Of a DNA stretch of 64,000 bases, positions 15,345-57,400 are shown piece by piece (within the stretch, counting starts at the first letter, position 1; every line of letters starts with the position of its first letter). Under the pieces are notes generated by a model that did not search any database, was not told where the DNA came from, and saw only the letters and a program-made list of their open reading frames with translations. A program made the translations under genes and the position numbers. Source of the stretch: Cyanidioschyzon merolae (Eukaryota); the NCBI GenBank assembly GCA_000091205.1, contig AP006497.2. One strand, given 5' to 3'.

Positions 15345-15700
15345 CAGAGCGAAAAGTTCTCTTCTAGCCTACCATCGAGCGAAGAAGAACAAATGACGAA
15401 GGAGACGAGGGAGAGTGGGACCTTGGCCAGAAAAAATGTGTATCTGACAGGACGGTGACGAGACGTAGTGTCACAGAGGGCACGAGTTCGAGGACTACTT
15501 GCATTCGTGAGTTCAACCAGAGGACACGAACGCAGGGACTCTGTGAACCAAGACTTGAACGCCGCCATGAATATCCGGAGACCTGCGGCGCTGAAGACAA
15601 GACCCGAAGCGCTGATGCCATTCAACTCTGTGGGGCACCCTCTCACACTCGAATATTGCACGGAGATGCTGAAGCCGATGGCGGGCGGCCGGTCGGAAAC
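15345..15700 (+). pseudogene. Copy A: a truncated 'X + RuvC-III tail' fragment of the TnpB/Fanzor-like family
   Basis: The plus strand reads VNQDLNAAMNIRRPAALKTRPEALMPFNSVGHPLTLEY at ~15543..15660. It is preceded by segment X (~15345..15540), which is shared at the nucleotide level with 19083..19280 and 36584..36780. The GGCGGCCGGTCGGAAACGG motif lies at ~15690. Upstream frameshifts are present. Confidence 0.55.
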
Positions 15701-17462
15701 GGCTTGGAGGCGTCTGTCTGGAGGTATATACGGATAACCTCGATGGTTATAGAGCTGCTCAGTTTCACTGATAGGTACGTTGACACGCACACCTCTGAAC
15801 ACGCCGCGGTTGCCCAGCGCCCCGTTGTATGCGAAGCACAGCATTCTGAGTTATCGGACCCAGCACGTCCTTTTCTGTTTCTGTCTATTTTTTCCTTGCA
15901 GCTATTCAACGAACACAATGTATTTAATGAATGGGAGGAACGTCACGAAAAGACTTGACACGCTCACCGCTAGCGAGCGAGGAATGGTTATATGTGTTCA
16001 AGCCAATCACTGCACCGTCCTGAGGTTGACGAACGGACCCTCTCATGGCTCGTATCCTGAACGCTGTCGTCCCAAAATCCAAGTTTCCAGACTCTTTCTA
16101 CAAGAATGTCTCCTGGTCACTCAATTCTCGTCACATATAGTCTATTAGGAAAACGATTAAAGAAGGCACCAGACGAGCAGTTTCCATTCCGTGCATACGA
16201 ACGGTGATGATGGGAAACGGATGCGAGGGAGAAGCGCGCCTCTATACAAGACGGTCGCGCGTCCAGCTCCACACAATCGATTTCGTACTGACACGCGAAT
16301 CCTCATTCCAGGACAGAAAGGTATTCGTCTCACTCGATAGGATTCCGTTCGCGAACAACGGCGGACCTGTGTACGGGTACTCAAACCGGGGCCGAACCGC
16401 TGTTTACAATGAAGAAACTAAAACGAGCATGACGACGGCATCAGTCCTAGTGGAGGAGCTGTCGTGTGGTCTCGTATTTATCGCAGATGGCTCGGGATCG
16501 TTCTCCACCTTATACTTCGTCGAAGCAGTCTTCGCGGATCCTCCTTCCCATATTCTTGCGTCGTGCTCTCAGACAAGGGCGCTTTCTATCACATATCTGG
16601 GTCAAGGGCATCGGCGGAATGTGTGGTGCTTCAAGCTTTATTCTGAAGAGCAGCTGCGCTGTAAATGCAGAACGCTTCGGTACTTGGGCAACGCAAAACT
16701 GGGCCTGTCGAGAACGGGTGCAGCATGTTCCCGCTGCAAACTCGACTCGTCGATGTTGTTATTGTGGGTTCTGCCCTGCACCCGAAACTCACGAGCGGCG
16801 TCGCAGCTAGGCCCTCATCTCTGGACCCATGCATCGTTGCTCTTGACACGTGCGGGAAACCTTGCAGATGCTGAGCATTTTGGGCTCGATCTCCAGAATG
16901 AGCTGAGAAAGCAGTCGGCGCTCAAATCCAATCTGTTCCGTTGCCGTATCGCCAGTCGCACGGCTCCCGGGACGCAACCCGTCTCTGCATCGCTTCCAGG
17001 CTCGCTTGACGCACTCTGGGCCAGCTACTGGGCTAATGCTCCAAACACCCGGTGCATGACCCGCAGACAAGATATTGCACAGCGAGCGTGGACGCGTCAT
17101 TCTGGCGGCCCGCAGGTGACCTTGGATCTGGAAGCGCCTTTCTCCATCTCACGATGGATCATGCCTGATGTAAATGAGAACATTTACGATGTTGGCGCCT
17201 GGGTTCACCATCGAAATCACAATCTCTAGGAATTCTCTGACGACATGCGCGCAGAGGTGTCCGCAAAACGGAAACAGCTGTTGGAATGGATCTGAGCGTG
17301 ATCTCATCCGTGCCCGCACAAGGAGATGCGATCCGCTTCTACCAAATCAAGGTTTGATACATGGCGGACAAGTGCCTTACTGATCTCAGCCCGAAAGACC
17401 GTTCCGAACGCGGTTTCCGTTCCTTGGTTCATGCGGCAAGCAAGGGTTCGACGTCGTATCGG

Positions 17463-18900: not shown

Positions 18901-19059
18901 GCGTGACACCGAGGTGTCCGCTATGGTGTTTCACTTCAATTGTGTTCCAATCGCCGCTGCGTGCTATGGAATGCTTTTTCGTGGTTTATGGCGGATGCGT
19001 TCAAAGTGAGTTTCTTTGAAGAAATGAAAAATTCACGGGGAAGTGCGTGGACATGGAAA

Positions 19060-19331
19060 TCGGGGGTTCTGGCGGGCCGTCATCACTGAGTTCTACGAAA
19101 ACGATAAGAATCCTCTTCTCGCCGACCATCGAACGAAGAAGCGCAAGTGACGACGAAGAAGAGGCGAGGTAGGCAAGAAAAGGTGTTTGCCCGACGGGAC
19201 GATGACGAGTGTGTCGTGGTACGGGGCCACGAGTTCGATGAATCCTTACATTGGAGTGTGTGTGTGTGTGTGCAGTCAACGGCAATGCACGAAAGGAGTT
19301 CGTGAACCGAGCCCTCAATATCATGCGCTGC
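19060..19331 (+). pseudogene. Copy B: segment X plus a 60-bp RuvC-III piece that abuts repeat R1 in inverted orientation (chimeric or nested)
   Basis: The plus strand reads VNGNARKEFVNRALNIMRCAV at ~19283..19331 and runs directly into R1. A (TG)9 microsatellite lies at 19256..19272. Segment X is homologous to 15349.. and 36584.. Confidence 0.5.
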
Positions 19332-20950
19332 GCTGTCAAGACTCCGCACTTTTTTATATCGTCAGGACTGATCTGGCACTTTTCCATCTCGAGCGTCTGA
19401 AGTGTACACCCCAGCTCGTGGTCTATGCAGGACGTCCGGAACTCGTCTATCGGGAATGTGACAAAACGCCTTGCGCACTCCTTGTAAGCGCGTGTCGGTG
19501 AGGCTGGAGTGCACCCTGTTTTCGACGCCCAGCGCCCTGCTCCCTATGCTGCTACGAGGCTTTGACGCTTGTCCTCCTTGAGGGTGCTCAGCGCATGAAA
19601 AAAGTTCCCAAATGCACGCCATTCCGCACAGTACAAGTTCATATGCGGACGATGGCATGGACATTGGCTTTTGAACGCTCTCTCCGCCGCTGCTTCCATT
19701 GCCGCTCTCTTAGCCCCGAGTGAACATGTGCCGGTCTCTCTTGTCCTTGCAGTTCCCGAGTCAGCAGTCGAGGGATGTCGGTGGCAGCGTTCAAGTTCCG
19801 ATTTCGCCACTTCCCGCCCGTGGTAACGCGTCCCGCGCGTAGGGCCAAGTTGCGGTCCGCACGTCGTTCCCCACGTTCATCTTCTGTGCACATACAGCTT
19901 CGGTGTGTCTTTCGCTGCGCTGACACCGGACTGTGATCAGACGTTCGCATATTCGTCTGCCGCATCTCTCACGCGACCGAGCGCCGCCCTGTGGCATGCG
20001 AAGGCTTGCTTCAGCGCTCGATGCATGTCCGGGACTGGCGTAGAAGGCGCTCGTCGAATCCATTCTTTGTCTGCATACCCGATGCCGTGACGAACGATGA
20101 CGGGCTGGTTCCGGGCGATTCCCTTTGCGAGTGCGCTGTATGGTGCAAAAGCAAGCATACGCAGTCCCGTTTGAGAAGGGATTCGTGGAATGCGATATTG
20201 GCCTTGGTGAGGCAGGCACCGGAATGATAACACTCATAGGAGAACCAGTCGAGTGATTTCGATCCGTCCACGCTGTTCTACAGCGAAGCGGCGATCCAGT
20301 CTGCACCAGAGGCGATCGCTGCGACGACTATAGTCAAGGACTTCATTCCATGCAACCAGAAGAGGCGAGTGCATCTGGGCGCGAATCCCCGTGTAACGTA
20401 CGATGCAGCTGTCGAATTCCCTGTCTCGCGGATGACCACAGGGACACAAGGATTTGTCTTTCGAAAGGATTCGATCATTTGATACGAGAAGCACGATGAG
20501 GCTTGGGCGTGAGCGTGTGAACACGTCGTCAAGGAGCGACGTCGGGCTCCGTGCCGCGCCAGTCCAGTGGCGAGCATTGCTGTGCCCACGGGTTGCCTTG
20601 AAACAGAAAGATCGAAAACATGAAGCATGCATGATTTGCGCATGCTATACACAAGGAACGCGATAGCGGTAGAGGCTTGTGCCTACAAATTGGTTCATAA
20701 AATCGGCTATTTTACAAACCTTTGTTTGGCGGCGTCGAGAAGCATCTCGATCCCGGTGACGTATCGAGTTACAGGGGCAACGCGTCGAAAGTGGCACGCA
20801 GTAACGCCGACCGGGAATCCGGAAACTGCGCATGAATTTCCAAGCCCTGATTGTTGCACTTTGAGTGTCTAGACCATATATCTAGGACAATGCCGGGAAA
20901 AAAAATCGAAAGGCAGGGCCAGCGCGTGCAGTGCAGTATCCCGTATTCAT
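19332..20950 (-). mobile_element. R1: a ~1.6 kb repeat carrying a decayed TnpB/Fanzor-like coding region; it is copy 1 of a direct-repeat pair
   Basis: It is about 97-98% identical to 39027..40645, with a constant offset of 19,695 bp. The minus strand encodes fragments in three frames, including WRAFGNFFHALSTLKEDKRQ and the zinc finger ...FRTSC..HELGC...CQISPDDIKKCG at its low-coordinate end. Multiple frameshifts leave no intact ORF. Confidence 0.7.
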
Positions 20951-22673
20951 CCAACGGTGGCACAGCGCTGCGGGAATCGGGCACCATTGAGGCGGGGCGT
21001 GTGTTGCGATGAATTCTATAATCAAAAGAACGTTCTGTTCTGAGCACGGGACCGAACGCTCGATGGATATCATCACCCTGGAAAGCGTCCATTATGCCTC
21101 GCCTTACGTTCAGGTACCAGCCGCCACTAGGCATACTTTTCCTCAGAGATACTAGTCGTCATATGTGTTCAACACTGTTCCGAATCTTCCGAAAATGCCG
21201 GGCAAATTGCGCTGGCTGTGGAGCGCGCTTCGAATGTAGTGCACCAGTGCCGAGAGCGCTTCGACGGCTCGTGCCATCGCGTCTCTGGTACGCCAGGCGA
21301 AGACGAGCCAACGTTGTTGCTGGTGTAAAACTTCTGAAAGGTGCCATGGATTTGGCATTCGCAGGCAGGAGTTGCACAGGCGACACCGACAGCGTACTAT
21401 CAAAAAAATAGGCGCATGGCATGTCGTAGCATAGGGAGCCTTCGTCTCATGAGTGTGTACTGGAAACACGAGTGGCTGCCGCACAGAAGCTGCGGATCGC
21501 GCCGAGAAGCAGCTGGGCATGCGCACAACCCGAGTAATGGGGCACACGCGAGCGTCTCGACGCGACTCCAGTGCTCCAGAATGCCTGGAAGCGTGTGCCG
21601 CGGCCTAGGCTGCCAGGCAAGCCTCGTTCGAGCGGCACCGTCCGGCGCGAGTCGAGTGCGACCTCCCCTCCCACGAGTCAGGCATCCGGGTGCCGGACGC
21701 AAATGATCCTCAGTCGGTATAGCGCGTGCGCATATTGTAGCGACGTGCTCCGATATGGCCGCAACACGTAGGCCACTGGCGCAACTTTTTCGCAGCCCGA
21801 CATACTCTAAACTGCCCAGAGGCTTCTCACTGCGCTTCATGCCGCAAAGCGTTTCCAGTCAGTACTTAGGGCGGTGTCGAGCGCCCTGCTCGACGCAGCG
21901 TTCTCGCGCGCCGCATCAAGTCGTTCTGCAATTCATCATCATTGTTCCGCCTCCGTGACTCGATTCAGTCGCATGCCCTCTAGACTTGCCATCCCGAGTC
22001 GCTGCCCGCGCATTGCGTCCACGAAAGCTCGTCTGTGTAGACAACAAGCGAATCGTTCCAGTCACAACGCTCGTCCCCGTGGACGCGATACAGGATACCC
22101 GCGTCGCCACACGCAGCGGTTACTCGAAGCGTCCCGCTCCTGCCGCTGATACGAGTGCTGCGGCCTCAGCGTCGATATGCCTGCGCAGCGCATGTTTCCG
22201 GCCTGCTTTTTTTTCATTGACAAAACGTTTACTTAGGCCAGCGTTCTCCGATTACGCGCATTTTTCTTTTCTTACTTTTTTCTGTGAGTGTTTTTTTCCC
22301 CGCCCTGCTGCGGAGGCGCGGCGCCCGCGCGATCGATGAACGCATCCCCGCGGATCGTTGCAAAAGCGCGACACGTCACAGCGCCGCATGCGTGCGTGCG
22401 TGCCGGCGGCGGCGGCGGCGGGAACAGCACTGTGGCATGCGTGCGTGCCGCGAACGCTCATTCAACAGTAGGCTCTCAGCGCAGCGTTCTGTTTTTGGGC
22501 GAATACAGGGAGCACCGGCAGTGTTCATCGAGAAGGAGTGTACTACGCGCCTGTGCGAGCGGTGACCGGGCGAAGGACCATTCGGTAGGTATCACTTGGT
22601 ACTCGTTCGAGAACGCCAGAGTTTTCTGCAGAAGCTTTTCGGATTTCGGTAAGAGGAGCCAGCGCGCCGAGGA

Positions 22674-26485: not shown

Positions 26486-29400
26486 ATGACGCCCGAAACA
26501 ATCGCATCGCCTCCAAGCGCTGCAAGGAGAGATGAAATTTTTGTTCGTCAACGGCACCTTTACACACACACACACACAGAGCGATACTTCGGGAATCTGC
26601 TATGTCACGACTGGTATCGGCTTTCGGGAAAGCATCCATCGTTTCGCGTCCTTGTCCCGGGGATTCCACCTCCCCCCAGACTTTCACTCTGGGACACGCG
26701 TTCTGTCTCACGCTCTAACGTGCGTCCAGAGTGCCACCTAGAGCGCCGGTGCGGTCGCAGTACGCAGTCAGAACGGCTTTGCGATACCCCAGCGGGCACC
26801 GGCTCGTCATGGAACAGACGAATGGACGTGCGATGCCCGCTTGCCTGTCGCCAGGTCCGCTGGTGGTCGTGCAGGCGCTGGGGATGCCATCAAGCCAGCG
26901 CCTCTGGCCAATCGATACGCAGCAGCGAAGGGACGCGGAAAATACGCTCACTGCAGCGGGTACGAACTGGCTCTGCACTCCTGGACTGGGTCTACGTTGC
27001 TATGAACCTTGTTCGGAGCCAGCTTGCCTTACAGCGACTACAAGACGGAATTGAGTCCGTTCGATGGAGATATACTGTATTGGATGCGTTGCGAGTAGAG
27101 CCGCGGTTCGTTTCTGCGCTCGTGGCTCGTGAACGGAGCTCCGGAGAGCGTCCTGCGACAACGTCCAGCTCGCGTGACTGCCTCGTGGCGGAGCGTCTTG
27201 ACGGTATCGACGTCGGTGCGGCGGTGACCGAGGCAGAGCTGTGGACTCGGGCGGCAGAACGGGCACCAAAACTTGTTGTACGCCTTGTGGAGTTTATCAA
27301 GGTGGGTGCACGGAGCTGCGTGTTTGTGTACGAAACCTACACGCCAGTCGACCGCGACGCCACGCCGACAGACGCTCAGGTAGTTCGGGTTGCTGCCCAG
27401 GCTTTTTGCCTAGTACGCCTGTGCGAAACGCTGGGCACAAGTGTCAACGGTAGACTGGACAGGTCCGAACTTAGCTTTCAAGGCAAAGCGCGTGGTTTCG
27501 GACCTGGAGTTCTTCTCAGGAGGGAGGCACCGGCAGGCGTCCTCGAAAGCGAATCGGCTGCATCCGAAAGCATAGCCCAGCAGGATGAAAAACAAGTCGT
27601 CTTTCAGCTGGGATGCCTTATGGGCGATCTTTTAGCCGAGGACACGCAGTACTATTCTCGGCGGTTACTACGCCTGCAAGCTAGTTGTGTTCGAGAAGCA
27701 CCTGAAGCGCGTCCAACGCTGAATATCGTGGAGCGGAAGCTTCGACGTCAGATTCAGCGCCTGGTGCGAGCACGCTCCGACAGCGGCTCCACCGAGGCAC
27801 GCGATGAACCACCGTCTACCCCGGAAATCAGCGATGTGACTGCACCGGTGCCGAGCCACGAAGACCTAGAAGAAATGTTGCACCAATGGGAGAGCGGCAT
27901 GTCTGGTAGCCAGACACCGGGACGGGCGTCGAAGAGCTCGCGGGACTCGGAGTCGACGGTGCCAGCCTCTTGTGCCGCTTACCCCGCTGGACCCAGCGTC
28001 GACTCAAATCCCCTTGGCGGTCATGTCGAGGCACCCTGGGCCATGGAGTCGTGCAGTGACCCGACACCGAACGCTGATCGAGTCGAGCAGCTCATTCAGC
28101 TGGCTTTGGGACGTTCCGAGCAAAGCTTCGGGTTTCCGCACTGCATTCGAGCGTTGCTGCTCGAGGCGTTCGCTCGACCCGATCGAGCCGTCATCGACAC
28201 CGTGCTCAAAGCGCTTCGTCGGCGAGTCTTGCAGGACGCTCTGAGCGTATTTTCTCGTTTGCAAGCGCTGTATATTATTCACTTTCTGTTGCTCCGCGGG
28301 CCGCGGAGCGTTTACGATAGCGCCATAACTTACACGGATTTTATTTCTCTTCTTAGGTCCGCTGGTCAGCGTTCCACAAAGACTGCCTTGAAGCAGGTGT
28401 CTCCCAGACCAAAAGGGGCAGGCTTTTGGGTCCAGGGTTGCACTGGCGGCTCCCGGGATGCAACAGGGATCGTGCACCGATACCGTGAAAGAGACCCTTA
28501 TGGCTGGGTGGTCGGCAGCGCGGTGCACGCAAAAGGCGACCAGCAGGCCGAGCGCTCGGCGAACCGCCGACAGGAGATGCTTCTCGAGCAAGCCAATGAG
28601 CTATCGAGGCACTACGGTGCACTTATCCTGAGCAAACTCGACGCGGTGCGGACCTGGCGAGACCAACGGGGCGCAAACAACGACGATGCGCGCCACCAGT
28701 CGAGACGTTTGGGGATGGCGTCCTCGTTGTTGCAAATTTCGAAATCCGCAGGCAAATTGGCTGAAGAGCTCCTTACAAACCCCGCTCCATTACCATTTCG
28801 AGAGCCAGTGATTGATGAGCTACTCTTGGATGTGTTGTGCGGCTTTGCTACCGTGACCTCTATTTTGGCGCCCCGTTTGAGTGGCGTCGAGCGCGTTCGA
28901 CTGGATCACGAGTTCGTCGTGATTTTTCGAGGACTTGCGCGCCTTTTTGGGCTCGCAATTCCCTATTACATCGAACGGAGCCACGAGGCCTTCCTGCGGA
29001 TCGGTCGGAGTCTGTGGGGCCTCTCGCAGAATTGCTCCCTCGACGAACGAACGATTTTCATACAGGCTGCGCGGCGACTTCCGGCGGAGCTGGCTATCGG
29101 CTGTGGCCTTCGCGCTCCAGACACTTATTCGGCGCTACCAGCGTTGGCGCTGTACGCGTTCCGCGCATGCTCATCGTCGAAGTCGGGTAACGTTCGGTCG
29201 ATGCAAGTGGATGCAACGCTGGCTTCCGCCGTGGCAACGACTGCAGATATAACAGCCGATGATTACCGTGCCGCACATTGCCGGGCGCGGAGTAAGAGCA
29301 TCTGCACTGTGCCAAGTTTCGAGACCAGGCTCGGGAATCTGCCCCTGAACCCTGAAGCAACACCTGCGAGACTTGGGCGAAATCTGGATATCGACTGGTT

Positions 29401-36306: not shown

Positions 36307-36569
36307 GTCGCTACCCGCCCGGATCCGGTACCGATGCGGTGCGATGCGTTGCCGCGCGCGCGCGGGCGCTGCGGCGCGCCATCCGTTTGCGCTTACGATT
36401 ATAGAGTTTCACCTGAACTGTGTTCCACGTTCAGATCCGTGTCAACGAATGCCTGTTCGCGGTTTATTGCAGGTGCTTTCTACGTGCGTTGATTTTCAAA
36501 AATGCAATATTCAAAGGAAAAGTATGGACATGCAAGTCGGGATCATGGAGGTGAGATGTTGCCTGATTC

Positions 36570-36910
36570 GACAAAAAGAAACACGATAAGATTCCTCTTA
36601 TTGCCGAGTATCGGACGAAGAAACGCGAGTGACGAAGGCGAAGTGGAAGAAGCGTGTTGATAGGCGAGGAGAGCTGTTTGCCCGACGAGGCTGTGACGTG
36701 ACCTTGGTGGCACAGAGGGCACGAGTCCTTATGCACCCTTGCGTTGATGACTTGTACCAGAGACAATACACGCTGGGAGTTCATGAATCGAGACTTCAAC
36801 GCTGCGCCATTAAAAACAGACGATGTGCGGTGCTGAAGAGGCGACCCGCGTACCCGACGCGAGCCAACTTTGTGGGCCAGCCTCTCACACTCGATGTGTG
36901 CAACGATAAA
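36570..36910 (+). pseudogene. Copy C: a truncated 'X + RuvC-III tail' fragment, frameshifted
   Basis: The plus strand reads EFMNRDFNAAPLKTDDVRC, then shifts frame to IKNRRCAVLKRRPAYPTRANFVGQPLTLDVCNDKL. Segment X lies at 36584..36780. The copy sits in the promoter region of the minus-strand hydrolase gene, which starts at 36306. Confidence 0.55.
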
Positions 36911-37591
36911 CTGAACTCACTAGTCCTGAAGCTTTACGTATATCGGCGTTATACAGCAGTTCGCTACATGTCGGAAGCGTCGGATGCCACGTGGTTCCTA
37001 AATTCGCATGAAAGTTCACTACAGCAACGCCGTACCACACACCATGAGTGATGCTCGTCGTCTTTGCAAAGACGCTTCCGTGCATTGTCGCTGGTATAGG
37101 GGCAGTCAGCTTGTCAAATAGCGTCGTGCGGGTACCCTGAATCAACTGGAAACCAAGCATCCAATCGATTCAAGGTGTTTCTCAGTCACAGTTGGGCGTC
37201 AAGTTGTCCTGATCATGCAGCGACAGAGGCGGCAGCCGCTCAGCACCCCCTGAGTCGGAGTTCCACGTCTGCAATCCGCCATTGTGCTCGGCTGAAGAAG
37301 CGTATCGACAAACGTGCAACAGGCATGAGCCACAGATCGGCCGCTGAGCTACATGTATCCGGACGCTCGTTTCCGCCTGCAGAGCCATCACGTATGCGCA
37401 TGAGAAAGTTCGCACCCGATGCATACATCTCGAAGCAAACCGCATGCTGCCGGCTGTGGATAAAGTGCTCTATTCAACGGACAAGTCGAACGCGAACGCC
37501 CTCCAAGTGGCGGCACCACTGAATCGGACAATGTTTACAACCTGCCATGCCTTGCGGTATGCTGCTAACGCTCATTCCAGGCGCTCGAGGT

Positions 37592-38668: not shown

Positions 38669-38744
38669 GAGGCTCGCTATCAAACGCCGTTCTAAAGTCG
38701 AACGACGTCGGACGTGTATCGTAGTGGCGGTGAACGTGCCTTCG

Positions 38745-39026
38745 ACCAGAGGTCTTCGACTGTCGTGCAGACGCCTTCCGGTCTTTTCGGACCGGCCACC
38801 TACTCCTGATTCCAACTTTTTCTCATATAATTCCACTTTGAGCGATTGTCCAACAAAGTTCTCTCTTGTCCACTCTGGAGGTCTTTTCTCCAGCACCGCA
38901 CATCTCCTGACATTGACAGCAGCGTTGAAGTCTCGGTTGACGAATTCCATACGTTTCTTGCCGCCGTTGGTTGTGCTCACCAGCGCATGTAGTGCTCGAA
39001 CTTTCGTCCTGCTTCCCATTTGCTCT
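38745..39026 (-). pseudogene. TnpB/Fanzor-like C-terminal segment (RuvC-III motif DFNAAVNV) plus a conserved 3' tail
   Basis: GGKKRMEFVNRDFNAAVNVRRCAVL matches the TnpB/Cas12 RuvC-III consensus (AD.NAA.NI) with the catalytic Asp present. It is preceded by a CxxC...CxxCG zinc finger and the FVTFPIDEFRTSC block (compare TnpB VxVdPxYTSqxCsxCG). A 3' motif CAGGAGTAGGTGGCCGGTCCGAAAAG at ~38745..38770 is shared with copies at ~55440 and ~15690. Confidence 0.65.
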
Positions 39027-40645
39027 TCTGTCAAGACTCCGCACTTTTTTATATCGTCAGGACTGATCTGGCAATTTTCCATCTCGAGCGTCTGAAGTGT
39101 ACACCCCAGCTCGTGGTCTATGCAGGACGTCCGGAACTCGTCTATCGGGAATGTGACAAAACGCCTTGCGCACTCCTTGTACGCGCGTGTCGGTGAGGCT
39201 GGAGTGCACCCTGTTTTCGACGCCCAGCGCCCTGCTCCGTATGCTGGTACGAGCCTTTGACGCTTGTCCTCCTTGAGGGTGCTCAGCGCATGAAAAAAGT
39301 TCCCAAATGCACGCCATTCCGCACAGTACAAGTTCATACGCGGACGATGGCATGGACCTTGGCTTTTGCACGCTCTCTCCGCCACTGCTTCCATTGCCGC
39401 TCTCTTAGCCCCGAGTGAACATGTGCCGGTCTCTCTTGTCCTTGCAGTTCCCGAGTCAGCAGTCGAGGGATGTCGATGGCAGCGTTCAAGTTCCGATTTC
39501 GCCACTTCCCGCCCTTGGTAACGCGTCCCGCGCGTAGGGCCAAGTTGCGGTCCGCACGTCGTTCCCCACGTTCATCTTCTGTGCACATACAGCTTCGGTG
39601 TGTCTTTCGCTGCGCTGACACCGGACTATGATCAGACGTTCGCATATTCGTCTGCCGCATCTCTCACGCGACCGAGCGCCGCCCTGTGGCATGCGAAGGC
39701 TTGCTTCAGCGCTCGATGCATGTCCGGGACTGGCGTAGAAGGCGCTCGTCGAATCCATTCTTTGTCTGCATACCGGATGCCGTGACGAACGATGACGGGC
39801 TGCTTCCGGGCGATTCCCTTTGCGAGTGCGCTGTATGGTGCAAAAGCAAGCATACGCTGTCCCGTTTGAGAAGGGATTCGTGGAATGCGATATTGGCCGT
39901 GGTGAAGCAGGCACCGGAACGATAACACTCATAGGAGAACCAGTCAAGTGATTTCGATCCGTCCACGCTGTTCTACAGCGAAGCGGCGATCCAGTCTGCA
40001 CCAGAGGCGATCGCTGCGACGACTATAGTCAGGGACTTCATTCCATGCAACCAGAAGAGGCGAGTGCATCTGGGCGCGAATCCCCGTGTAACGTACGATG
40101 CAGCTGTCGAATTCCCTGTCTCGCGGATGACCACAGGGACACAAGGATTTGTCTTTCGAAAGGATTCGATCATTTGATACGAGAAGCACGATGAGGCTTG
40201 GGCGTGAGCGTGTGAACACGTCGTCAAGGAGCGACGTCGGGCTCCGTGCCGCGCCAGTCCAGTGGCGAGCATTGCTGTGCCCACGGGTTGCCTTGAAACA
40301 GAAAGATCGAAAACATGAAGCATGCATGATTTGCGCATGCTGTACACAAGGAATGCGATAGCGGTAGAGGCTTGTGCCTACAAATTGGTTCATAAAATCG
40401 GCTATTTTACAAACCTTTGTTTGGCGGCGTCGAGAAGCATCTCGATCCCGGCGACGTATCGAGTTACAGGGGCAACGCGTCGAAAGTGGCACGCAGTAAC
40501 GCCGACCGGGAATCCGGAAACCGCGCATGAATTCCCAAGCCCTGATTGTTGCACTTTGAGTGTCTAGACCATATATCTAGGAAAATGCCGGGGAATAAAA
40601 TCGAAAGGCAGGGCCAGCGTGTGCAGTGCAGTATCCCATTCCAAT
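39027..40645 (-). mobile_element. R2: copy 2 of the 1.6 kb direct repeat; it is continuous with a RuvC-III-encoding tail at 38745..39026
   Basis: The ORFs at 39057..39371, 39486..40001 and 39973..40347 are near-identical to those at 19362..19664, 19791..20306 and 20278..20652. The minus strand across the boundary reads ...EFRTSCIDHELGCTLQTLEMENCQISPDDIKKCGVLTEEQMGSRTKVRALHALVSTTNGGKKRMEFVNRDFNAAVNVRRCAVLEKRPPEWTRENFVGQSL. Confidence 0.7.
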
Positions 40646-41945
40646 CTAACGCTCGGCTAGCATAAACCGCTGTTCACGAAACGGCATCCATGCAATAAGA
40701 GGAGTCAGCGTACGCTCCGCAAGTCGAAATTGGACTGGGTATTCGGCAGCCTCGCAGGCGCGTTCATCGCTCTGGGCGACGAGTTCCAGAACTGGAGAAG
40801 TCTCTCTGCTCCTTCGGTGCCTCCGCGTGCAACCGAGACTTGGCCAAACAAGTGACAGGTAGCAGGCGCCCGTCACGCAATCCCCAGCATCTTCGACCGT
40901 ATCATCCGTACCGGGAATTCGGATGCTCAACACGGCCAGGCGACGATGCGCGTCCGTTTCGGAGCAGGCGAAGCGGTGCGCTCCAACGCCGGCACCCGTG
41001 GCGCCTCGCATCTCTTCGGCGAAGCGACTCGAACGCGTCAACCCCAAGATATTTCTCTAAGACTTGGCAAAGCTATTGAATTGCCGTGACGCACACAACG
41101 AAGCGCTACCCCGATTGCACCCTGCTTTTATGGTACACGGTCGATGCACCGAGCCAGATTGCCATCGGTAACCGGAAATGAAATCGATGCGCTCATCCAG
41201 ACGTTTTTGCGTATCTGAACCCTGGACCCGTATTCCCCGTAACACTGCACGCTTGATCGATCCCGCAACGCTCAGAGTGCAACGCCCATGGTACACGTCA
41301 AGCAGAGACAACACGATTTTCATCGATCCTTGGAGGCATTCGTTCAAGGCAGTTGCGTCATTTTGCATGCCGAGCGCTCGCTTGGCCGAGATCCGCGCAC
41401 CTCTGTGCGCGGCGTCCATGCGCCGGTACCCGTGTCCGTGCGCGGCTGAATGGCGCAGCGATCGCCGTCGCGCCGCCGCCACGCATCGCTGTCCGGTGTC
41501 GCATCCGTGATCGCGGCATCGCATCGGATGCGTGCAGCGCATGCACCCCGCGCGCCCAGCACGGATCGCGCAACCAAAGCATCGACGTCACGCGCCCTGA
41601 GCGCAGCGCCCGCGGACGCTTGAGGGCGTCGCGTGCATTCACGACGCTCGCGGGATCGGAATCTACTTCCGTGCATTTCGCAGCTTTGAGTAAACTTCAA
41701 GACACAGAAGCGCAGCTTATTTCGATCTCAAGTTTCATCTAGCGTTCGCTTACGTGTCGCAAAAGTGGAGAAAGCAATATGCTGGTTCTGCCTGCGCTCT
41801 GCAGCGTACCAGGCACCGCGTCACTCTGATCCGCAGTTGTTGACCTGCGCGCCCTCATCGACACACAGACGTGGTATCCAGGACGAAGCGCGTCCGCTGG
41901 TCTCGTTGTGATCCGGCAAATGCGCCCACGCCCGTGGCGCAAACA

Positions 41946-43106: not shown

Positions 43107-43454
43107 CTTTGTTCAATAGTTTTCGTGCCACTCGGTTCAGAACGGTTTCCTCGAACCGTTTCGAGAAACGCTTGACGCTGACACCACGACGAGAACGCTC
43201 TGAGCTGGTAACCCGCCCGCCGACCGAACGTTCGTCCTGACGCTGCGGCGCGCAGGCTGCGGGTGCCCGGTCGAGCAGTGGTGGTGGCGTCTGAAAATGC
43301 GCACGCGCGCGCGCTAACGCAATCTCCGGCATCGGCACCGACCGCACTAGATAGAACAAAGGACAGAGGCTATCCAGTAACTAGCAACGATATAAGGATT
43401 TATTTTCTCTTCTATGATTAATGTTAACATGACGGAAGGATTTCCGTATTGTCA

Positions 43455-44130
43455 AAAGTTTAGCTTCTAGGCGGAAGGTCCCGCGATCTGGACAAGTCTG
43501 TTAGGCTGATGCTTCATGCGCTCCCGCAATAGCTGTTGCTCTAGCGAGACCTGAGCAACTCGTCCGCAAACGCAGTTCATTCTGGGACTCAGAGCGGATA
43601 CACTGCGTTTCGATGTCGTCACGGTCGCAGTGGACTTCTTGTATATTGCTTCGCGCTGCAGCAGGCAATAGGTCCGTCTGCGCGATTGGCTCGTTCCCGG
43701 AATGCTCATGAATCCTGATTCCGTAGCAGGTGAATGTAGGCAAAAGGTCCGTCTGCGCGATTGGCTCGTTCCCGGAATGCTCATGAATCCTGATTCCGTA
43801 GCAAGTGAATGCAGGCAAAAGGTCCGTCTGCGCGATTGGCTCGTTCCCGGAATGCTCATGAATCCTGATTCCGTAGCAGGTGAACCACGCCTCGGGCCGG
43901 CACCCTTTGCAGTATGGCAAAAACGTCCTACCTCCGCGATGTATCGTCATCAGCGGTATGAGCGATAAAGCGGACGCTCACGACAGGTACTCGGCGCACG
44001 ATAGAACATACGAAACGACCAGCATATCCGTGAGGAAATATGGGTAAAGGAACTTGGAGCTAGGGTGCAGCACCATGACCAACGCTCTTCTGATTACCAT
44101 TATCCATCCGGCAACCTGTCATCCATGCTC
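43455..44130. repeat. Dispersed ~650 bp non-coding repeat (copy 1) with an internal 75-bp unit triplicated in tandem at 43671..43895
   Basis: It is homologous to 57975..58510. Shared strings include AGGCGGAAGGTCCCGCGA, ACGCAGTT(C/T)ATTCTGGGAC, GTCCGTCTGCGCG...GGCACC(C/T)TT(T/C)G(C/T)AGTATGGCAAAAACGTCCT, GCACACGATAGAAC.TAC.AA.CGACCAGC.TATCCG and ATTACCATTA(T/C)CCATC. Three 75-bp tandem units differ at 2-3 positions. Confidence 0.75.
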
Positions 44131-44334
44131 CATGTCCACCGGTTTGTCATCGAGAGAGACGGAGAGAGACCGGATAGCGCCATCGATGCGCTATCGTCGA
44201 TCGCCGCCGCTGCCATCATCTGTTGAGGGTGCCTCCAGCCGCCAGCGCGCGCCCGGATCGCGGCGACCGCTCTGCGCATCCGTCGTCCAGAGGCACGGAG
44301 TTGTGAACCTGCCCCCAGACACGTACGCTGCACC

Positions 44335-44968: not shown

Positions 44969-46495
44969 TCAGATTTTCAGAAGGAGTCTGCGCCATGTAA
45001 TAAGGAACTGTGCATAGCTATGAAGGCCATTCGAGGCCGGCTGCTGTTGCTGCTGCTTCTGGGTGCTGTGACGCAGGCGATACCAGAGGCGCAAGGGCGC
45101 AAAGGCCCAGTGTGCAGCACCATGCGACGCAGTGTCCCCATAACTCGACACGAGATAGCCGTCCACGAGGAGCGTGCCTTCAAAAGTGAGCGGCGCGTAC
45201 GCGTTGGTGTCCACGTGCTCGGTAACTCGTACAATGGTGTCGGTGGATCCATCTTCATGGAGCAAGGCCATACCCGGAAACAGGTTGCGGGCTCGCGTGA
45301 ATCGTGGGCGTTCGTGCGCATCTCCCGGTTGGACGTACACTAAATGATCGGGTGTCATGTGCAAAACGCCACCGCTGCTGGTGTGCAGCGCGATATACTG
45401 GAACGGGCCTGCCGCAGTTTGTTTGTCCGCAAACGCGTACGCGGTCGTGAAGCGCTTCGTCCAGCCACCGCGATTGTTCGGGACTAATGTGGCAATACGC
45501 GTCCCGGGTTCGAGTGCGGATAGCGGCACCAGCGTGCCGTCTGCGCGCTCTACGGTGCTCTCAGCCGGAAAGCAGCCGATGAAGCTCTGCCCACCAGCCA
45601 AGGTCGAGGGACAACCAGAGAAGGACTCTAGTGCGACAAACTTTGCGCTTTCGTTGTATATCGGGGGTCCGAGCGTGATGGTGCTCCCCTGCTGCGGCCA
45701 GAAATCAAACGTCGCAGACGTCTCCACAGGTTCATACATGGGAATATTGGTTTCCATCGGGTTTGCCGGGCAATAAAAAGGTGCACTCATCCCCGTCTCT
45801 CGATAAAAATCCAAACACTCCTCACACACAGAATAGCTGAGCTCCATACCAACATTTTCAACGAAACGAACGTCAACGACAGACGCGCACGTTGGCTCCA
45901 TCCCGTTCACGAACCCGCCTTCGGGAACGATTACGACGCTTCCGGAGGGAACGACAAACACATACGCCACCCCGGCTTGCTGGCCCTTGATAAGCCCCAG
46001 CGGTATCGTGAGCGAGTCGGTCAGTGGCGGGTATGGTCCGCCACTGATGGAAGCGAGCTGCGTGCCATCCGTTTCACCAGTCAAGTATGCGGGGAAGAAG
46101 GCACCACCAAACGGATACGCAGCGACATCGGTTGCTCCTCGGTTTAGAACCACAGCCAGGCTCTCATTTTTCGGGTTCAGAAACTGCCAGTATACGATGC
46201 CCTCAGAACGCGAAATCCACGACCAACTCACCTCAACGCCCAGCGGGCTCGAGCAACTCTGTTGACTACGGACTCGCTCCAAGATACGTCCAACGGTTAG
46301 GGTACCCGCCGGTTTGGTACCTTTTGGGTAGTACAAGTGCCGCAACCTCGCCTGTTTCGAACGAGATATGTCGCTGAGCCCTAGCGTTTTCACAGGCAAA
46401 GCGTACGCCACGTAGCAGCATAATCCCACACTGCAAAAGAGCGCTAGCAACAAAATCCAGGAAAAGAGCACGCGACATCGTAGACTGTGGCCCAT
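44969..46495 (-). CDS. Secreted Hog-type protein: signal peptide, a novel N-terminal domain, then a Hedgehog/intein-type Hint domain
   Basis: The signal peptide is MGHSLRCRVLFSWILLLALFCSVGLC. The Hint hallmarks are CFPAESTVERADGTLVPLSALEPGTRIATL ... LHMTPDHLVYV ... FEGTLLVDGYLVSSYGDTASHGAAHWAFAPLR. A poly-Q run lies near the C-terminus. Confidence 0.75.
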   Translation of the reverse strand: MGHSLRCRVLFSWILLLALFCSVGLCCYVAYALPVKTLGLSDISRSKQARLRHLYYPKGTKPAGTLTVGRILERVRSQQSCSSPLGVEVSWSWISRSEGIVYWQFLNPKNESLAVVLNRGATDVAAYPFGGAFFPAYLTGETDGTQLASISGGPYPPLTDSLTIPLGLIKGQQAGVAYVFVVPSGSVVIVPEGGFVNGMEPTCASVVDVRFVENVGMELSYSVCEECLDFYRETGMSAPFYCPANPMETNIPMYEPVETSATFDFWPQQGSTITLGPPIYNESAKFVALESFSGCPSTLAGGQSFIGCFPAESTVERADGTLVPLSALEPGTRIATLVPNNRGGWTKRFTTAYAFADKQTAAGPFQYIALHTSSGGVLHMTPDHLVYVQPGDAHERPRFTRARNLFPGMALLHEDGSTDTIVRVTEHVDTNAYAPLTFEGTLLVDGYLVSSYGDTASHGAAHWAFAPLRLWYRLRHSTQKQQQQQPASNGLHSYAQFLITWRRLLLKI

Positions 46496-46834: not shown

Positions 46835-46968
46835 ATGCGACTCGCCATGAAATCCCTTACGACGCTGGTATTCGTCGTAGAGATCGTTGTTTGCCTCAGT
46901 GTATGGTCTGGGTTAGCCCTTCCGGTTTATCGTAGTGACCGCCCCCAGCTGGTGTTCGCAAAGCCGCC

Positions 46969-47000
<32 letters not shown>

Positions 47001-48427
47001 TCGCCGCCGGGGTGCGTCTCGAACGGGCACCGCTGCACCCTCTCGACCAGAGGGTTGTTCAAGAGGTTTCCGGTGCGCCGCTGGGACAGCCTTCACTGCG
47101 TACAAGCGGCACGAGTTGTACGAGCGGTGCAGGTGTGGAGGTTTCCTGGACATGGTTCAACCAGACCAGCGGTATCGTTGTATGGCAGTTCTACAATCCG
47201 ACTTCGAGTGAACGGGCAGTTGTTCTGAACCGCGGGGCGAAAGGCAACAATAGTATCATTGAATCGTACACCTTCGGCGGCGCCTATACATTCGCGTACC
47301 TCGGGAACGGGCTCGCCACGCTGGCCCCGGGGCCGTATCCGACGCTGGAAGCATCACCGAGCGTGTTGCCGGTCGCCATTATAGATAAGAGCGATCCGGA
47401 TATTGGCTTTCTCTTCACTATTCGTGCGGGTGGCACGGTAAGCGTCGAAGAGGGTGGCTTCGTGAACTTGGAACCGTTCTGTGACAGTGTACCTGACGTC
47501 TCGTTCGCGGAGAACGCCGACGTCAACATCACTTATGCAAAGAGTGTTATGTGTGAAGAATACTATTTTCAGGAAGGTAGTTCGAATGTTACGTGTTCTT
47601 CGAATCCTTTGGTGACGACTTGGCCTATTTATCAAGTGGCAAACGGTTCCGTGACGGGACAGAATTACATTATCATGGACTCTAATACACAGATCGAGTT
47701 TTTGAACGTATCAAACTCACAGGGTGGTTCATCGTCGGGATTCTCCTGCTTCCCGGGCGATGCAACCGTCACACTGTCCGATGGACAAGTCAAGCCCATT
47801 CACCAACTCAAGAAAGGCGATTGGATCTATACGCTTTCGTACGACGCCAAGGATCGCAAGTGGTCCCGTGTTTCGACGAGATTTCTCGGATTCCTCGATC
47901 ACAAACCTGCAGAGCGGACTGAATTCCTTCGGATTACGCTGCACGGGACGGATAGCGTTCTAGAGATTACACCGGATCACTTGTTGCCGGTAGTCGCAGC
48001 CGGTCCGTCCCCTGGTGAGCAACGTGAGCGCTATATGCCCGCTCGGCTGGTTGTGCCTGGCGCATTCCTCTTTCTGGAGACCGGTGAGCTTGCCCACGTA
48101 CGCAGCATGACATGGGTGCAACGGACGGGTGCCTTTGGACCGCTCACCGAGGCGGGAACCCTCCTAGTCGACGGGGTCCTCGTCTCGTGCTATGCGCACA
48201 CAGGGAGTCATGAAGCTGCGCATATGAGTATGTGGCCGTTGCGCGTTGGATCCCGTCTATCTCGCTGGCTGAACCCGGTGCATGCCCGTGTCCCAGGGAG
48301 CGCTTGCGCAAGTACTGGTATGCATCCGTATGCGCGTGTGCTGCTCGCTCTTCAGTACATGCTACGCATGTTCGAGCATCCGAGAAGCAAACAATACCTC
48401 CATAAGCATCAGCATATTTGGCTGTGA
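46835..48427 (+). CDS. Secreted Hog-type protein, paralogous to 44969..46495: signal peptide, a shared N-terminal domain, then a Hint domain
   Basis: A signal peptide and TM-like leader are present. (Q)12 is encoded by (CAG)n at ~46970..46999. The Hint hallmarks are CFPGDATVTLSDGQVKPIHQLKKGDWIYTL ... LEITPDHLLPV ... EAGTLLVDGVLVSCYAHTGSHEAAHMSMWPLRV. Shared N-domain motifs with the partner are SWTWFNQTSGIVVWQFYNP, VVLNRGA, TFGGAY and GPYPTLEAS. Confidence 0.75.
46970..46999 (+). repeat. (CAG)n microsatellite encoding poly-Q inside Hog gene 2
   Basis: cagcagcagcagcagcagcagcagcagcaa. Confidence 0.9.
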
Positions 48428-49229
48428 AATTCTGCGCATAAGCGCTGCGGCGGGTCTGTGAATTCCGATACGAACAACCCCCTATACCTGTGTCAGCTTA
48501 AGAATGAACCATTGGAATGCTCGCCCTGTTCCTAGCGTGCGAATTTCTCCCGACCTTGTTTGTAGATGTACAGCCTCGCCGTTCGAAATGCGACAATGAG
48601 CGATGACGGATTCAAACGTAGTTGTAGGGTTCTCGATCGTCTTGTCAGTGTGGCTCGTTTCTCGCTTTGCCGCTAGAATTCGGTACGTTACCGGAATCTA
48701 GGTGATTCGCGATGCCATGGAACCAGGGCTCGTAAAATAATCGATATCGTTACGAAGTGCATATGTAGAATTTTTCACGCGTCCCTTTTCGGTACCTGCT
48801 ACATGTTAAAATCGCAAATTCTTCAAGTCCTCCATGTTTCTGTTTCGTGGCAATTCGTAGACGCAGCCATTCGCGTCGCTGGATCGAGGAAAAAAAACTG
48901 GACGCCGTCCACTGACGAATTCATCACAGGTTCATGGCTGGCGTTTACTGACTTTGTCACGTGAAAAATTCAAAGCAGCTCGAAGGACAACACTCTTGCT
49001 TGATTGTGGCTATCGAGAAAACGACATTCGACAGCAGCATGATACGTCAGCCAGGACACGCTTCTACTAGAGGCTCCCGTCTATTCTGTTACCACGGAAA
49101 AGGATTGTGGACTCGGGCTTGAGCCAGCGCAGTGATCGCTTCTAGGGAAGCGCCCGTCACCGCCTGGTCCGAACTGAGCATAGACGGATCGAAATTTCTC
49201 GACTTGATCTTGAGGATCGATTTTTTTCT

Positions 49230-49350
49230 GGGATTCGCTTCATCATGGACAAGTTCGCAGTGCACAAATCCTCTATCGAATGGGACGGCGTACGCTTGGA
49301 CATGCATCGGGCAGTGTACTCGCTGTGCGTATCGGCCAGAAGAAGGCCGG
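49230..49350 (+). repeat. Fragment F: a short R-like fragment in inverted orientation
   Basis: The plus-strand peptide QCTNPLSNGTAYAWTCIGQCTRCAYRPEEGRN resembles the R1/R2 minus-strand peptide HSTNPFSNGTAYACFCTIQRTRKGNRPEPARH. Confidence 0.35.
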
Positions 49351-55047: not shown

Positions 55048-55439
55048 GCCACAAGGAGCGTTCTCAACAAAAGCGAGAGCCGCCTACCTCGACAACTACT
55101 TTCAGATAGATAGACAGACAGCCAAACACAGACAAACCTCCAAGTCGAGTCTTTCCCCGTACCGATATCGTGGCACCCGAGCAGAAAGCGCACCCTCGGG
55201 TAACTTGTCGTCTTCGTGCAAGCGAAGCAACACACTGTTCGTTCGGGCTGTTGCCCGCTGCATCAGGGAGCGCGTCGATCGATGCGCGATCACCGGCCGC
55301 ACCGGCACGCCAGTCAATCATCGATGAAAAGCTGCGTAACCCGTGCCCGCTGTGGTGGTGGTGGTGGTACCGAGCGACGCACCGCCGCCTCCGCCGCCAC
55401 ACTCTGTAGAATACGTATCCACCGAGCCGATCGGCGGAC

Positions 55440-57400
55440 GCTTCGCCGGCTTTTCGGACCGGCAACCAACTACTCCTGCGTGCAACTTCAGGTCGTACTA
55501 TTCGACCTGGAGAGGTTGTCCCAGAAAGTGGGGTCGTGTCAGCTTCGGAGGTCTCGTCTCCTTCAGTGCACGTCTCCTAATATTGATTGCAGCGTTAAAG
55601 TTTCGGTTCACGAATTCCATACGTTTCTTGGCATTGGTTGGTATCACCGACGCAAGTAGACCTCGAACTCGCAACCTCCACGCCATCAGGTGCTCTGGCA
55701 GCGCTCCGTACTTTGCTATATCCTCAGGGCTCCGCTGGCACTTTTCCATCTCGGCACTCTGAAGTGTACACCTCAGCTCGTGGTGTAGATAGGAGTTTCG
55801 GTTCCCATCTATTGGCAACGTGACAAGACGGTGTGCGCACTCCTTGTACGTTCTTGTCGTTGGAGCGGGTGTACACACTTTTTTAGACGCCCGGCGCCCT
55901 GCGACGTATGATGTTACGAGCCTTTGGCTCCTGTCCTCATTGAGGGCGCTCAACTGGTTGAAAAAGTTGGCGAATGCACGCTTTTTTCCCACTGTACAAG
56001 CTCATACGCAAGCGATTCATCCGGGGCTTTGTATATTCTTTGCACAGCGCTTCCCAATGAGCAACGCGAACTTTTATGAACTCCCGAATGACCTGAAAGT
56101 CCGCTCCATGGCTCGTCACCTCGCTCATAGCTTCCAGATGCTCGTTCACTCCTTCATTTTACGTCTCAATTTTCTTCCTTGCATTCATTATTCCCGATTC
56201 TCGGTAATATCTAGCTTCTGAGAGCTTCAACAGAGGCATGTTTTCCTGGCGCAAGCCGCCGTCAATACCATCTTCCCCACGCTCGGATACCGCAATAGGT
56301 ATAATATTCATGTTCCCGGGGCCCGCGCCAACGACATAGTCCTTACCCTGCACCGCATGCGTCGCAGGATCCGCCTCCTTTTTTTTCATGCCTCGCCGAC
56401 GGCGAAGCATGAAGATGCAATGGGACGATCCACTTTCAAGCGCCGATCGTGTACACACACGGCTGCTCCATCGGCTTCGATCATCTCAGTAAATAACTTT
56501 TGTTTGCTCGTTTTCAGACGTTTGAAATCGAACATATTCACCCAATTACGTCTCCCGGTTTTCGCCCGTAAACTCCTTGCTGCTTAGATCGAACTCCGGA
56601 TAGATCTCCTTCATTTTGCTGTAAAGTACGTAGGGGCCAACTGTCACAAAATGTGACTTGATGTTGCATAGCGGAACGACATTGAAGCGCTTACCCATTC
56701 GGGCAGCGTTCCGTTTCTCTGACTCTTCATTTTTCCCCTCACACGCTGCTCCATCTCCGCCTTGCGTTCGAGTTCTCGATTCAGGAATACGAAATAGTGC
56801 AGGATGAGCGGATAAAAACTTTTTTTCATCTCTGATACCTTTTCTGCTGGATTTGACAAGCCCCAAGACTACACAGTGCTCGTGAACAGCCATACGAATG
56901 ACAGAAGCTTCATTCTTGCCCCTGCGTGATGCCTTCTTGTCGACGAATTCGATCCCCTGTCCATTCTGGCGATCGTTCGTGATGCCACTGATGATGGCCC
57001 GTATCCCCTGGCGGGAGAGGCCCGGGCACAGTGTAAAAATAGCCCGTATGATGAAACGTTCGAGGTTCACGATCATATGGTTCTTCCGGTGCTTGAGGAA
57101 CTTGATTGCCCCGTAGGTGTAAATATCACCATCATCCCTGCATCGAGTACCGTCGAAGCGGAATTCGGCGTAATTCTCGTGGAGGGCGTGCACTCGCTCA
57201 TTTTTCGTCGACGTTTCCCCTGTGCCAACCATCAGGTGGCGAATAAACGTCTTGCTGAAAAATCCCCCCGGGACCTCGACCATTTTGATGCCCATCACGT
57301 CCCGAAACATCTTCTTCATCAAATACATAAGCCCTGACGGAGCCTTCATAATACTCATGGAGTACGACTCGACACGGTTTCTGAGTGCATCTCACAACTT
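55440..57400 (-). mobile_element. Copy E: a diverged, most complete (~1.95 kb) member of the TnpB/Fanzor-like element family, with lower GC in its 5' two-thirds
   Basis: Four consecutive minus-strand ORF segments are 56546..57358 (270 aa), 56159..56458, 55937..56149 and 55498..55992. Together they give ~620 aa when frameshifts or short gaps are allowed. The C-terminal segment aligns at ~50% identity with copy D: RAFANFFNQLSALNEDRSQRLV ... YKECAHRLVTLPIDGNRNSY ... CQRSPEDIAKYG ... KKRMEFVNRNFNAAINIRRRALKETRPPKLTRPHFLGQPLQVE. A candidate RuvC-I-like block is KDYVVGAGPGNMNIIPIAVSERGEDGIDGG at ~56250..56330. The 3' flank 55440..55497 carries the conserved CAGGAGTAGTTGGTTGCCGGTCCGAAAAG motif. Confidence 0.55.

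Follow-up and report, generated by a model that had tools for sequence, protein, structure and literature searches.

The window analysed here, a stretch of 64,000 nucleotides of Cyanidioschyzon merolae DNA (contig AP006497.2, assembly GCA_000091205.1), has a GC content of about 55% and carries long, intron-free open reading frames (ORFs) on both strands. The genes neighbouring the repeats discussed below are eukaryotic in character and include an HSF gene, two genes with Hint modules, pelota, an ANP32-like leucine-rich repeat gene and an S-adenosylmethionine (SAM) methyltransferase gene; pelota has a 99% identical match in a metagenome/Logan protein, its best match in a named organism is the counterpart from Cyanidiococcus yangmingshanensis (73% identity), and an exact-sequence look-up of this ORF gave no record. 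The locus is part of a nuclear, Cyanidioschyzon-clade genome. Dispersed among these genes are repeats that a first-pass annotation had regarded as a multi-copy set of decayed TnpB/Fanzor-like elements in a eukaryotic nuclear locus, a view that is borne out by the match to a published transposon consensus, a family profile, the predicted fold, the active site and the neighbouring genes. We assign these repeats, with a probability of roughly 95%, to decayed copies and fragments of CMe-1A and TE-N2_CMe, the Fanzor1 transposon family of C. merolae. Some 6.4 kb of the window (10%) derives from CMe-1A.

The CMe-1A consensus (3169 bp) and the CMe-1 protein (734 aa) were published in 2013 by Bao and Jurka (Mobile DNA 4:12; Repbase; PMC3627910), who described about 150 copies, each around 80% identical to the consensus of about 3 kb, reported no terminal inverted repeats, gave the target-site duplications as undetermined, and defined TE-N2_CMe, present in about 70 copies, as the 5' 635 bp of CMe-1A. 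The consensus DNA (Additional file 2) and the protein were taken from the supplementary files of that paper, and the window was compared by blastn with the consensus, tblastn with the protein, self-blastn, and hmmsearch with a profile of diverse relatives, termed A3 and described below. The consensus aligns to the copies designated D and E, to a segmental duplicate of the surroundings of D, to a solo 5' module and to parts of copies A, B and C (Table 1). In tblastn, the CMe-1 protein matches copy D with E = 2e-92, copy E with 3e-72 and 0.0, copy A with 2e-16 and copy C with 3e-11. The segments are also linked to each other by self-blastn at E = 1e-12 to 1e-100, far beyond chance expectation, with D and E being 74% identical over 575 nt (E = 4e-100), and A, B and C mutually 69% identical (E = 1e-15 to 1e-25). 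The peptide motifs quoted in the first-pass annotation were likewise recovered in A, C, D and E, at or near the places it gave.

Table 1. Fanzor1-derived segments and associated repeats in the window (consensus positions are those of CMe-1A)
Feature	Coordinates	Strand	Content	Basis
Old Fanzor1-like pseudogene	769..2546	+	strongly diverged, several stops	30-38% aa identity to CMe-1
Copy A	15152..15730	+	consensus ~770-1010 joined to ~2840-3083; 3' end truncated	blastn; tblastn
Copy B	18922..19311	+	consensus 786-1007, then 2849-2919	self-blastn, alignment
Segmental duplicate of D neighbourhood	19311..20956	-	CMe-1A fragment (consensus 2504-2845 = 19652-19311) and R1 repeat (19653-20956)	blastn 77% over the fragment
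Copy C	36400..36925	+	consensus 843-1008, then ~2840-3019; frameshift; 3' end truncated	blastn; tblastn
Copy D	38681..39347	-	3' fragment, consensus 2504 to true 3' terminus	blastn 82% over 2504-3137 (= 39347-38714)
R1 proper at D	39348..40651	-	dispersed repeat distinct from CMe-1A, joined to D at consensus 2504	no consensus match (blastn)
Solo TE-N2_CMe-like element	43339..44152	-	consensus 1-655 only (= 44152-43339)	blastn 1-335 and 262-655, 76-80%
R1-like fragment (F)	49177..49349	-	R1-like repeat	67% to 20101-20274 and 39796-39969 only
Copy E	55410..58511	-	nearly full-length, consensus 1 to ~3104 of 3169	blastn 81.3% over 1-3084 (= 58511-55434); local alignment
Weak Fanzor-like relic	58743..59090	-	near 5' end of E; 4 stops	29% aa identity; tblastn E = 1.2e-7

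Given that the segments match the published consensus, the window holds members of an already published family. The divergence of copy E, at 81% identity, and the occurrence of a solo 5' module both fit the copies of about 80% identity and the TE-N2_CMe elements of the original description (PMC3627910). The finding is already known: the 2013 paper made the family public together with its consensus DNA and reconstructed protein, and no new kind of element is present; the definition of the family and the reconstruction of an intact protein, which the first-pass annotation had presented as work still to be done, had been accomplished there. Copy E is collinear with CMe-1A, the protein remnants match CMe-1, the solo module corresponds to TE-N2_CMe, and terminal inverted repeats are absent from the elements here as well. 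While nothing in the window differs in kind from the published family, the window and its relatives add certain details. A, B and C represent a derivative of about 0.5-0.6 kb that recurs and has an internal deletion; the true 3' end lies a few nucleotides past that of the published consensus; the 5' flank is T-rich; and in relatives TE-N2 can be replaced by other 5' modules.

Copy E was rightly placed in the family by the first-pass annotation, but its extent had been given as 55440..57400, whereas it is nearly full-length and falls short of the consensus by only about 70 nt at the 3' end, local alignment having extended its 3' side to about consensus 3104. Its TE-N2_CMe-like module makes up the 5' 655 nt (57857-58511) and its Fanzor1 ORF remnant lies at about 55438-57544. 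The tblastn alignments reveal five in-frame stops within codons 22-551, one more within codons 542-725, and one frame change near codon 545. Its catalytic motifs read GAGPG, IDGNRNS (in the peptide LPIDGNRNSY...KKRMEFVNRNFNAAINIRR) and NRNFNAA, as compared to GADPG, VDEFRTS and NRDFNAA in the consensus; copy E is a pseudogene that has lost all three catalytic residues, which are mutated to G, G and N. Of the same triad, copy D keeps the Glu and the last Asp and is devoid of the RuvC-I segment, and A and C retain RuvC-III only. The solo module is linked by self-blastn to 57851-58512 in copy E and bears a 75-bp tandem duplication (43661-43884), the tandem copies of which are 97-99% alike. Two small collinear TE-N2 matches (consensus 50-75 and 191-253) were also observed on the plus strand at 26615-26806, at the start of the long ORF 26486-30214, the first part of which is probably non-coding.

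Copy D is the sole copy in the window that retains the 3' end, its terminus reading GACTTTAGAACGGCGTTTG at 38681-38699. The last 201 codons of the Fanzor1 frame are without a stop, the stop codon itself having been lost, and they are 75% identical to CMe-1 at the amino acid level, with the peptides FVTFPIDEFRTSCIDHELGC...KKRMEFVNRDFNAAVNVRR. As the TAG stop of the element is mutated in D, its frame reads through into a SAM-dependent methyltransferase gene (Methyltransf_11, E = 2.4e-16), giving rise to a 637-aa ORF (37592-39505, minus strand); the likely ATG of the methyltransferase itself lies at 38668, 12 nt past the end of the element at 38681, and the 637-aa frame is an artefact.

At consensus 2504 copy D is joined to the R1 repeat, and this arrangement recurs in the segmental duplicate: the segments 19333-20956 and 39028-40651 are 97.9% identical over 1.6 kb in self-blastn, indicating that part of D was re-duplicated recently. 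What the first-pass annotation had taken as R1, a component of the Fanzor-like set, proves to be this duplicate, which consists of a 342-bp CMe-1A piece (19311-19652, minus strand; one stop, 65% amino acid identity, tblastn E = 8e-43) and an unrelated repeat. Repeats resembling R1 at 64-73% identity occur at 11 metagenome loci and at 5977-6176 and 49177-49349 of the window. The interpretation of R1 as a Fanzor-linked module was considered and rejected, since in relatives R1-like repeats occur apart from Fanzor copies. Within R1 lies an older Fanzor RuvC-III relic, WRNRNLNAAIDI, at 39385-39570 on the minus strand (A3 hmmsearch, E = 0.0018), with its equivalent in the duplicate at 19696-19872, also on the minus strand (E = 0.015); in both copies of R1 the motif reads GKWRNRNLNAAIDIPRLL...RP and is situated just upstream of the CMe-1A fragment. 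R1 itself may be descended from an older Fanzor element.

The 3' boundary of the duplicate presents a further peculiarity. The 1.6-kb duplication ends within Fanzor sequence and meets the inverted copy B at 19311, at nearly the same consensus position (2845 as against 2919), so that the minus-strand CMe-1A fragment and copy B, which is cut at 19311, abut tail to tail. The palindrome formed at this junction suggests that inverted copies recombined or that template switching took place between them. Copy B itself belongs to the family, as had been proposed, with its limits at 18922-19311 rather than at 19060..19331.

A three-way alignment of A, B and C revealed that all three share one junction, at which consensus ~770-1010 is followed directly by the sequence from ~2840 onward, and contiguous matches across the same junction are found in the metagenome loci L038, L081, L056/L071, L042 and L040/L041. 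The sharing of this junction argues for copies of one derivative, as opposed to independent decay, and A, B and C are accordingly copies of an old, short, internally deleted derivative of CMe-1. Copy A preserves the peptides ...VRGLLAFVSS..VNQDLNAAMNIRR, and C the RuvC-III variant FMNRDFNAA. Judged by their sequences, all copies in the window are dead, those other than E being remnants of the C-terminal portion of the ORF, and none of them is predicted to be functional.

The placement of the family among the Fanzor1 nucleases is supported by sequence, profile and fold, which together support the presence of decayed, multi-copy Fanzor/TnpB-type RuvC nuclease elements in this eukaryotic nuclear locus. 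The A3 profile, built from 52 diverse relatives, retrieved from the PDB only Fanzor1 chains, namely PpFz1 (9cf0, E = 8.9e-22), SpuFz1 (8gkh, 1.6e-14) and GtFz1 (9cer, 6.2e-12). Ten of the 52 A3 relatives reach the Pfam family Cas12f1-like_TNB (PF07282), which was not reached by the close relative P0001, itself a member of the A3 set, or by the window translations. An AlphaFold2 model of P0001 (mean predicted local distance difference test score, pLDDT, of 81.2; predicted template modelling score, pTM, of 0.78), when searched against the PDB with Foldseek, returned SpuFz, PpFz and GtFz at ranks 1-7 with E = 1.5e-16 to 5e-14; the model has TM-scores of at most 0.72 (normalized by target length) to the Fanzor1 structures, and Cas12 proteins come next. 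The RuvC Asp of GADPG (D484 in P0001) and the Glu of VDEFRTS (E656) are invariant among the A3 relatives, and the Asp of NRDFNAA (D725) is nearly so, while the canonical RuvC-II position is occupied by Gly, in VVAYG. A rearranged RuvC site of this type has been described for Fanzors (PMC10530073).

The proteins of the CMe-1 clade share with SpuFz1, PpFz1 and GtFz1 the profile match, the best fold match, a long helical N-terminal region and the same D/E/D constellation of RuvC residues, including the relocated Glu in DE(F/Y)xTS. They differ from them in showing just 12-15% identity in structural alignments, in having HHx3Cx9C in place of the CxxC...CxxC ribbon, and in possessing a low-confidence, repeat-expandable linker before RuvC-I, where the P0001 model falls below a pLDDT of 50 (residues 378-470). 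In the metagenome loci L001 (7146-7450) and L002 (6465-6694), this linker contains two to four tandem 75-nt (25-aa) repeats (KHEE.KEA.PATQ.VQDND..V). With TnpB of IS200/IS605 (e.g. ISDra2 TnpB) and Cas12f they have in common the single split RuvC and the D..NAA.NI form of RuvC-III, and a guide RNA derived from the 3' end of the element would likewise be expected by analogy; in contrast to these, CMe-1A resides in a eukaryote and has no TnpA partner, its protein is of double the length with a rearranged RuvC-II Glu, and the Pfam TNB domain is detectable in just some of the relatives. A prokaryotic TnpB of the IS200/IS605 or IS607 type is ruled out in that the only ORF of the consensus encodes a Fanzor1 and the surrounding genes are eukaryotic.

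A protein search with copy E, after repair of its stops and frameshift, identified 66 close relatives (P0001-P0066), all from Joint Genome Institute (JGI) metagenomes, the best being P0001 (752 aa, 47% identity to repaired E at 99% coverage). In the databases these proteins are annotated at most as "hypothetical protein" or, weakly, as PF26935 (DUF8286), and the Fanzor/TnpB link is invisible there. An exhaustive profile search yielded 2868 relatives at E < 1e-3, and a scan of metagenome contigs located 427 related places in a handful of JGI samples, out of which 80 loci were fetched. As the 75-nt tandem repeats break single high-scoring segment pairs, the full-length alignment of copies was built from chained pairs. 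Across 49 distinct metagenome copies, conservation is highest at codon position 2, followed by positions 1 and 3 (e.g. 0.93, 0.83 and 0.77 for positions 2, 1 and 3 at consensus 2431-2520), a pattern of purifying selection on the ORF of the relatives.

The relatives also allow the ends of the element to be delineated. At 32 independent 3' junctions, conservation runs 9-12 nt past ...GAA as MGGCGTTTG, beyond the published consensus, so that the family 3' end reads ...GAA(A/C)GGCGTTTG; its instance in the window is the terminus of copy D. The last 20 nt come in two variants (CGTTCGACTTTCGAACGGCG and CGTTTTTCTTTTGAAAGGCG), each of which can form a terminal hairpin, in different registers. Before the element, T occupies the positions -7 to -1 in 10-17 of 19 independent junctions, as compared to a T content of about 22% farther upstream, and the heptamer preceding position 1 of CMe-1A/TE-N2 is T/C-rich, with window instances at 58512-58518 and 44153-44159. 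This heptamer could reflect a target preference, a candidate target-adjacent motif (TAM) or an unrecognised terminal T-tract. When the two flanks of individual copies were compared by eye, no consistent target-site duplication emerged. The 5' part of the element is modular: TE-N2 stands in direct orientation in just 12 of 49 distinct copies, and most copies begin near consensus 640-690 behind other modules, among them an inverted TE-N2 and an unrelated leader of 500 nt or more that copies share (e.g. L006:4612-4672, L007:4150-4672, L068:4560-4620). One module gives way to another near a small palindrome (GCGCTCGGTGAGCGC) at about consensus 648. A defined 5' end at this position was considered and dismissed: several groups of homologous sequences occur upstream of it, which marks ~648 as a module boundary and not a terminus. 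Conservation over the last 250 nt reaches about 80% column identity; the hairpins drawn by hand within the final 130 nt have 75-83% of cells paired, as compared to 37-54% in slid controls. The T-rich 5' flank, the modular 5' ends and these 3' RNA observations are to be taken as leads, not results.

Several observations weigh against deriving these repeats from an RNA-guided Fanzor1 nuclease. The decayed translations of D and E had no match in Pfam, NCBIfam or, by phmmer, the PDB, which is attributable to decay and divergence, not to a lack of homology; a profile confined to close relatives (A1) also had no PDB match, the broader A3 profile being needed. No copy in the window is intact, and function can be argued from relatives only. 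The CMe-1 clade has no canonical CxxC...CxxC zinc ribbon, but only HHx3Cx9C (TSYTHHELGC...EKCQRSPEDIEKYG in the CMe-1 consensus) and lacks a second Cys pair; in the A3 set as a whole these residues show no conservation. The zinc finger of the form C...CxxxxxxxxxCG, which the first-pass annotation had held to be diagnostic of the family, does not stand: the Cys before the G replaces a Tyr, a change confined to D and its duplicate. Since some family members tolerate a degenerate zinc finger, the non-canonical ribbon weakens that motif claim and not Fanzor1 membership. With respect to a guide RNA, RNAalifold predicts the last 250 nt to be essentially unstructured (-3 kcal/mol, no compensatory pairs), the covariation of the hairpins in their two registers does not exceed that of shuffles (the columns assigned to helix 1, which were misaligned, are to be disregarded), and an Rfam scan gave no match; a tRNA scan was likewise without a match. 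Moreover, cleavage in vitro was not observed for at least one Fanzor1, CrFNuc-1 (PMC10530073).

CMe-1A is an element of about 3.2 kb without terminal inverted repeats, and its only ORF encodes a 734-aa Fanzor1, the eukaryotic homologue of the IS200/IS605 TnpB. Its RNA-guided cleavage, guide-RNA position and target motif are inferred by analogy with characterised Fanzors and TnpB. The intact protein would probably bind a guide RNA (omega or fRNA) transcribed from the element's 3' end and extending into the adjacent sequence, find its target by a short neighbouring motif, and cut double-stranded DNA by a single RuvC site comprising the D of GADPG, the relocated E of VDEFRTS and the D of NRDFNAA; such cleavage would help the element to persist or spread. 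A tentative and, on balance, doubtful extension of this scheme is that the family moves by TnpB-like, guide-RNA-dependent homing, as a eukaryotic, transposase-less element maintained by its RNA-guided nuclease. Under homing, the T/C-rich heptamer upstream of the 5' end would be the TAM and the conserved 3' terminus (...GAAMGGCGTTTG) would mark the start of the guide; the interchangeability of the 5' modules would imply that only the 3' part is needed in cis, with which the derivative represented by A, B and C, a leader plus 3' region, concurs.

The T enrichment at the 5' junctions admits a different explanation, namely that TE-N2 and the composite element were retroposed, in which case the T-rich tract before position 1 would be a poly(A) tail on the other strand, and solo TE-N2 copies would resemble 5'-truncated retrocopies of that strand. 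This is improbable, as the tract is short (about 6-9 nt), of fairly constant length and often broken up by C residues; the family has no associated reverse transcriptase, and the retroposed RNA would carry the Fanzor ORF in antisense. Furthermore, D, A and C would have to be 3'-truncated retrocopies, which would be atypical, and TE-N2 occurs in both orientations beside the Fanzor unit.

Even less probable is the domestication of individual fragments, with D serving as a new N-terminus or promoter of the methyltransferase, or the A/B/C derivative persisting as a locus for guide RNA only, employed in trans by intact Fanzor copies at other sites of the genome. D does keep its 201 open codons at 82% nucleotide identity and ends 12 nt before the methyltransferase ATG; similarly, the 5' leader is still present in A, B and C, as is the sequence from consensus 2840 on, the expected place of a Fanzor guide-RNA scaffold, in a derivative that recurs in relatives. 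Nevertheless, the 3' terminus is missing from all three of A, B and C, which are only 67-74% alike and contain indels, and the openness of D is also expected if its divergence arose while the lineage was still under selection. The idea that a conserved host gene with several exons, or a family of such genes, accounts for the shared peptides, the fragments being exons, was named in the first-pass annotation as the alternative that would overturn its view. The single open frame of D with the downstream methyltransferase gene, which would speak for it, is due only to the mutated TAG, the methyltransferase having its own ATG, and the idea can be dismissed as extremely improbable, given fragments on both strands that are collinear with the transposon consensus including its non-coding 5' and 3' parts, the stops and the frameshift in them, the hundreds of copies dispersed in unrelated contexts in relatives, and the otherwise long, uninterrupted ORFs of the region.

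We are thus left with decayed members of the CMe-1A family, next to which the window contains several features that the first-pass annotation did not list, including the solo module and the relics within R1 discussed above, the pseudogene at the 5' extremity of the window and the weak relic adjoining the 5' end of copy E. The pseudogene, which falls outside the interval of 15345-57400 covered by that annotation, was detected by tblastn (E = 1e-7 and 1.7e-13) and by A3 matches (8.6e-9, 8.6e-4 and 9e-3) collinear with the profile, and may represent a second, more ancient Fanzor lineage in the genome. The relic next to copy E was not recovered by the A3 profile search at E < 0.05. Of the six segments originally enumerated as copies, A to E are upheld as Fanzor-derived, but the sixth, F, matches neither the CMe-1A consensus nor the protein query in tblastn nor the A3 profile, its only resemblance, at 67%, being to the non-Fanzor part of R1. 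Among the host genes, those at 44969-46495 (minus strand) and 46835-48427 (plus strand) are divergently oriented paralogues whose products look secreted and carry a C-terminal Hint module of the hedgehog/intein type (Pfam E = 1.6e-32 and 7.8e-40).

For the annotation of the genome, these results imply that about a tenth of the window is CMe-1A-derived and should be masked, and that the 637-aa "ORF" is a product of read-through. Contigs from hot-spring metagenomes contain many intact CMe-1-type Fanzor1 genes that are apparently under selection and, as the host grows in hot and acidic conditions, these are of possible interest as compact, heat-tolerant RNA-guided nucleases. The T-rich 5' flank and the modular 5' ends offer small new clues to the movement of the transposase-less Fanzor1 family, a question left open in the original description (PMC3627910). 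Should the homing proposal hold, CMe-1 would represent a eukaryotic family of transposase-less elements that is maintained by its own RNA-guided nuclease.

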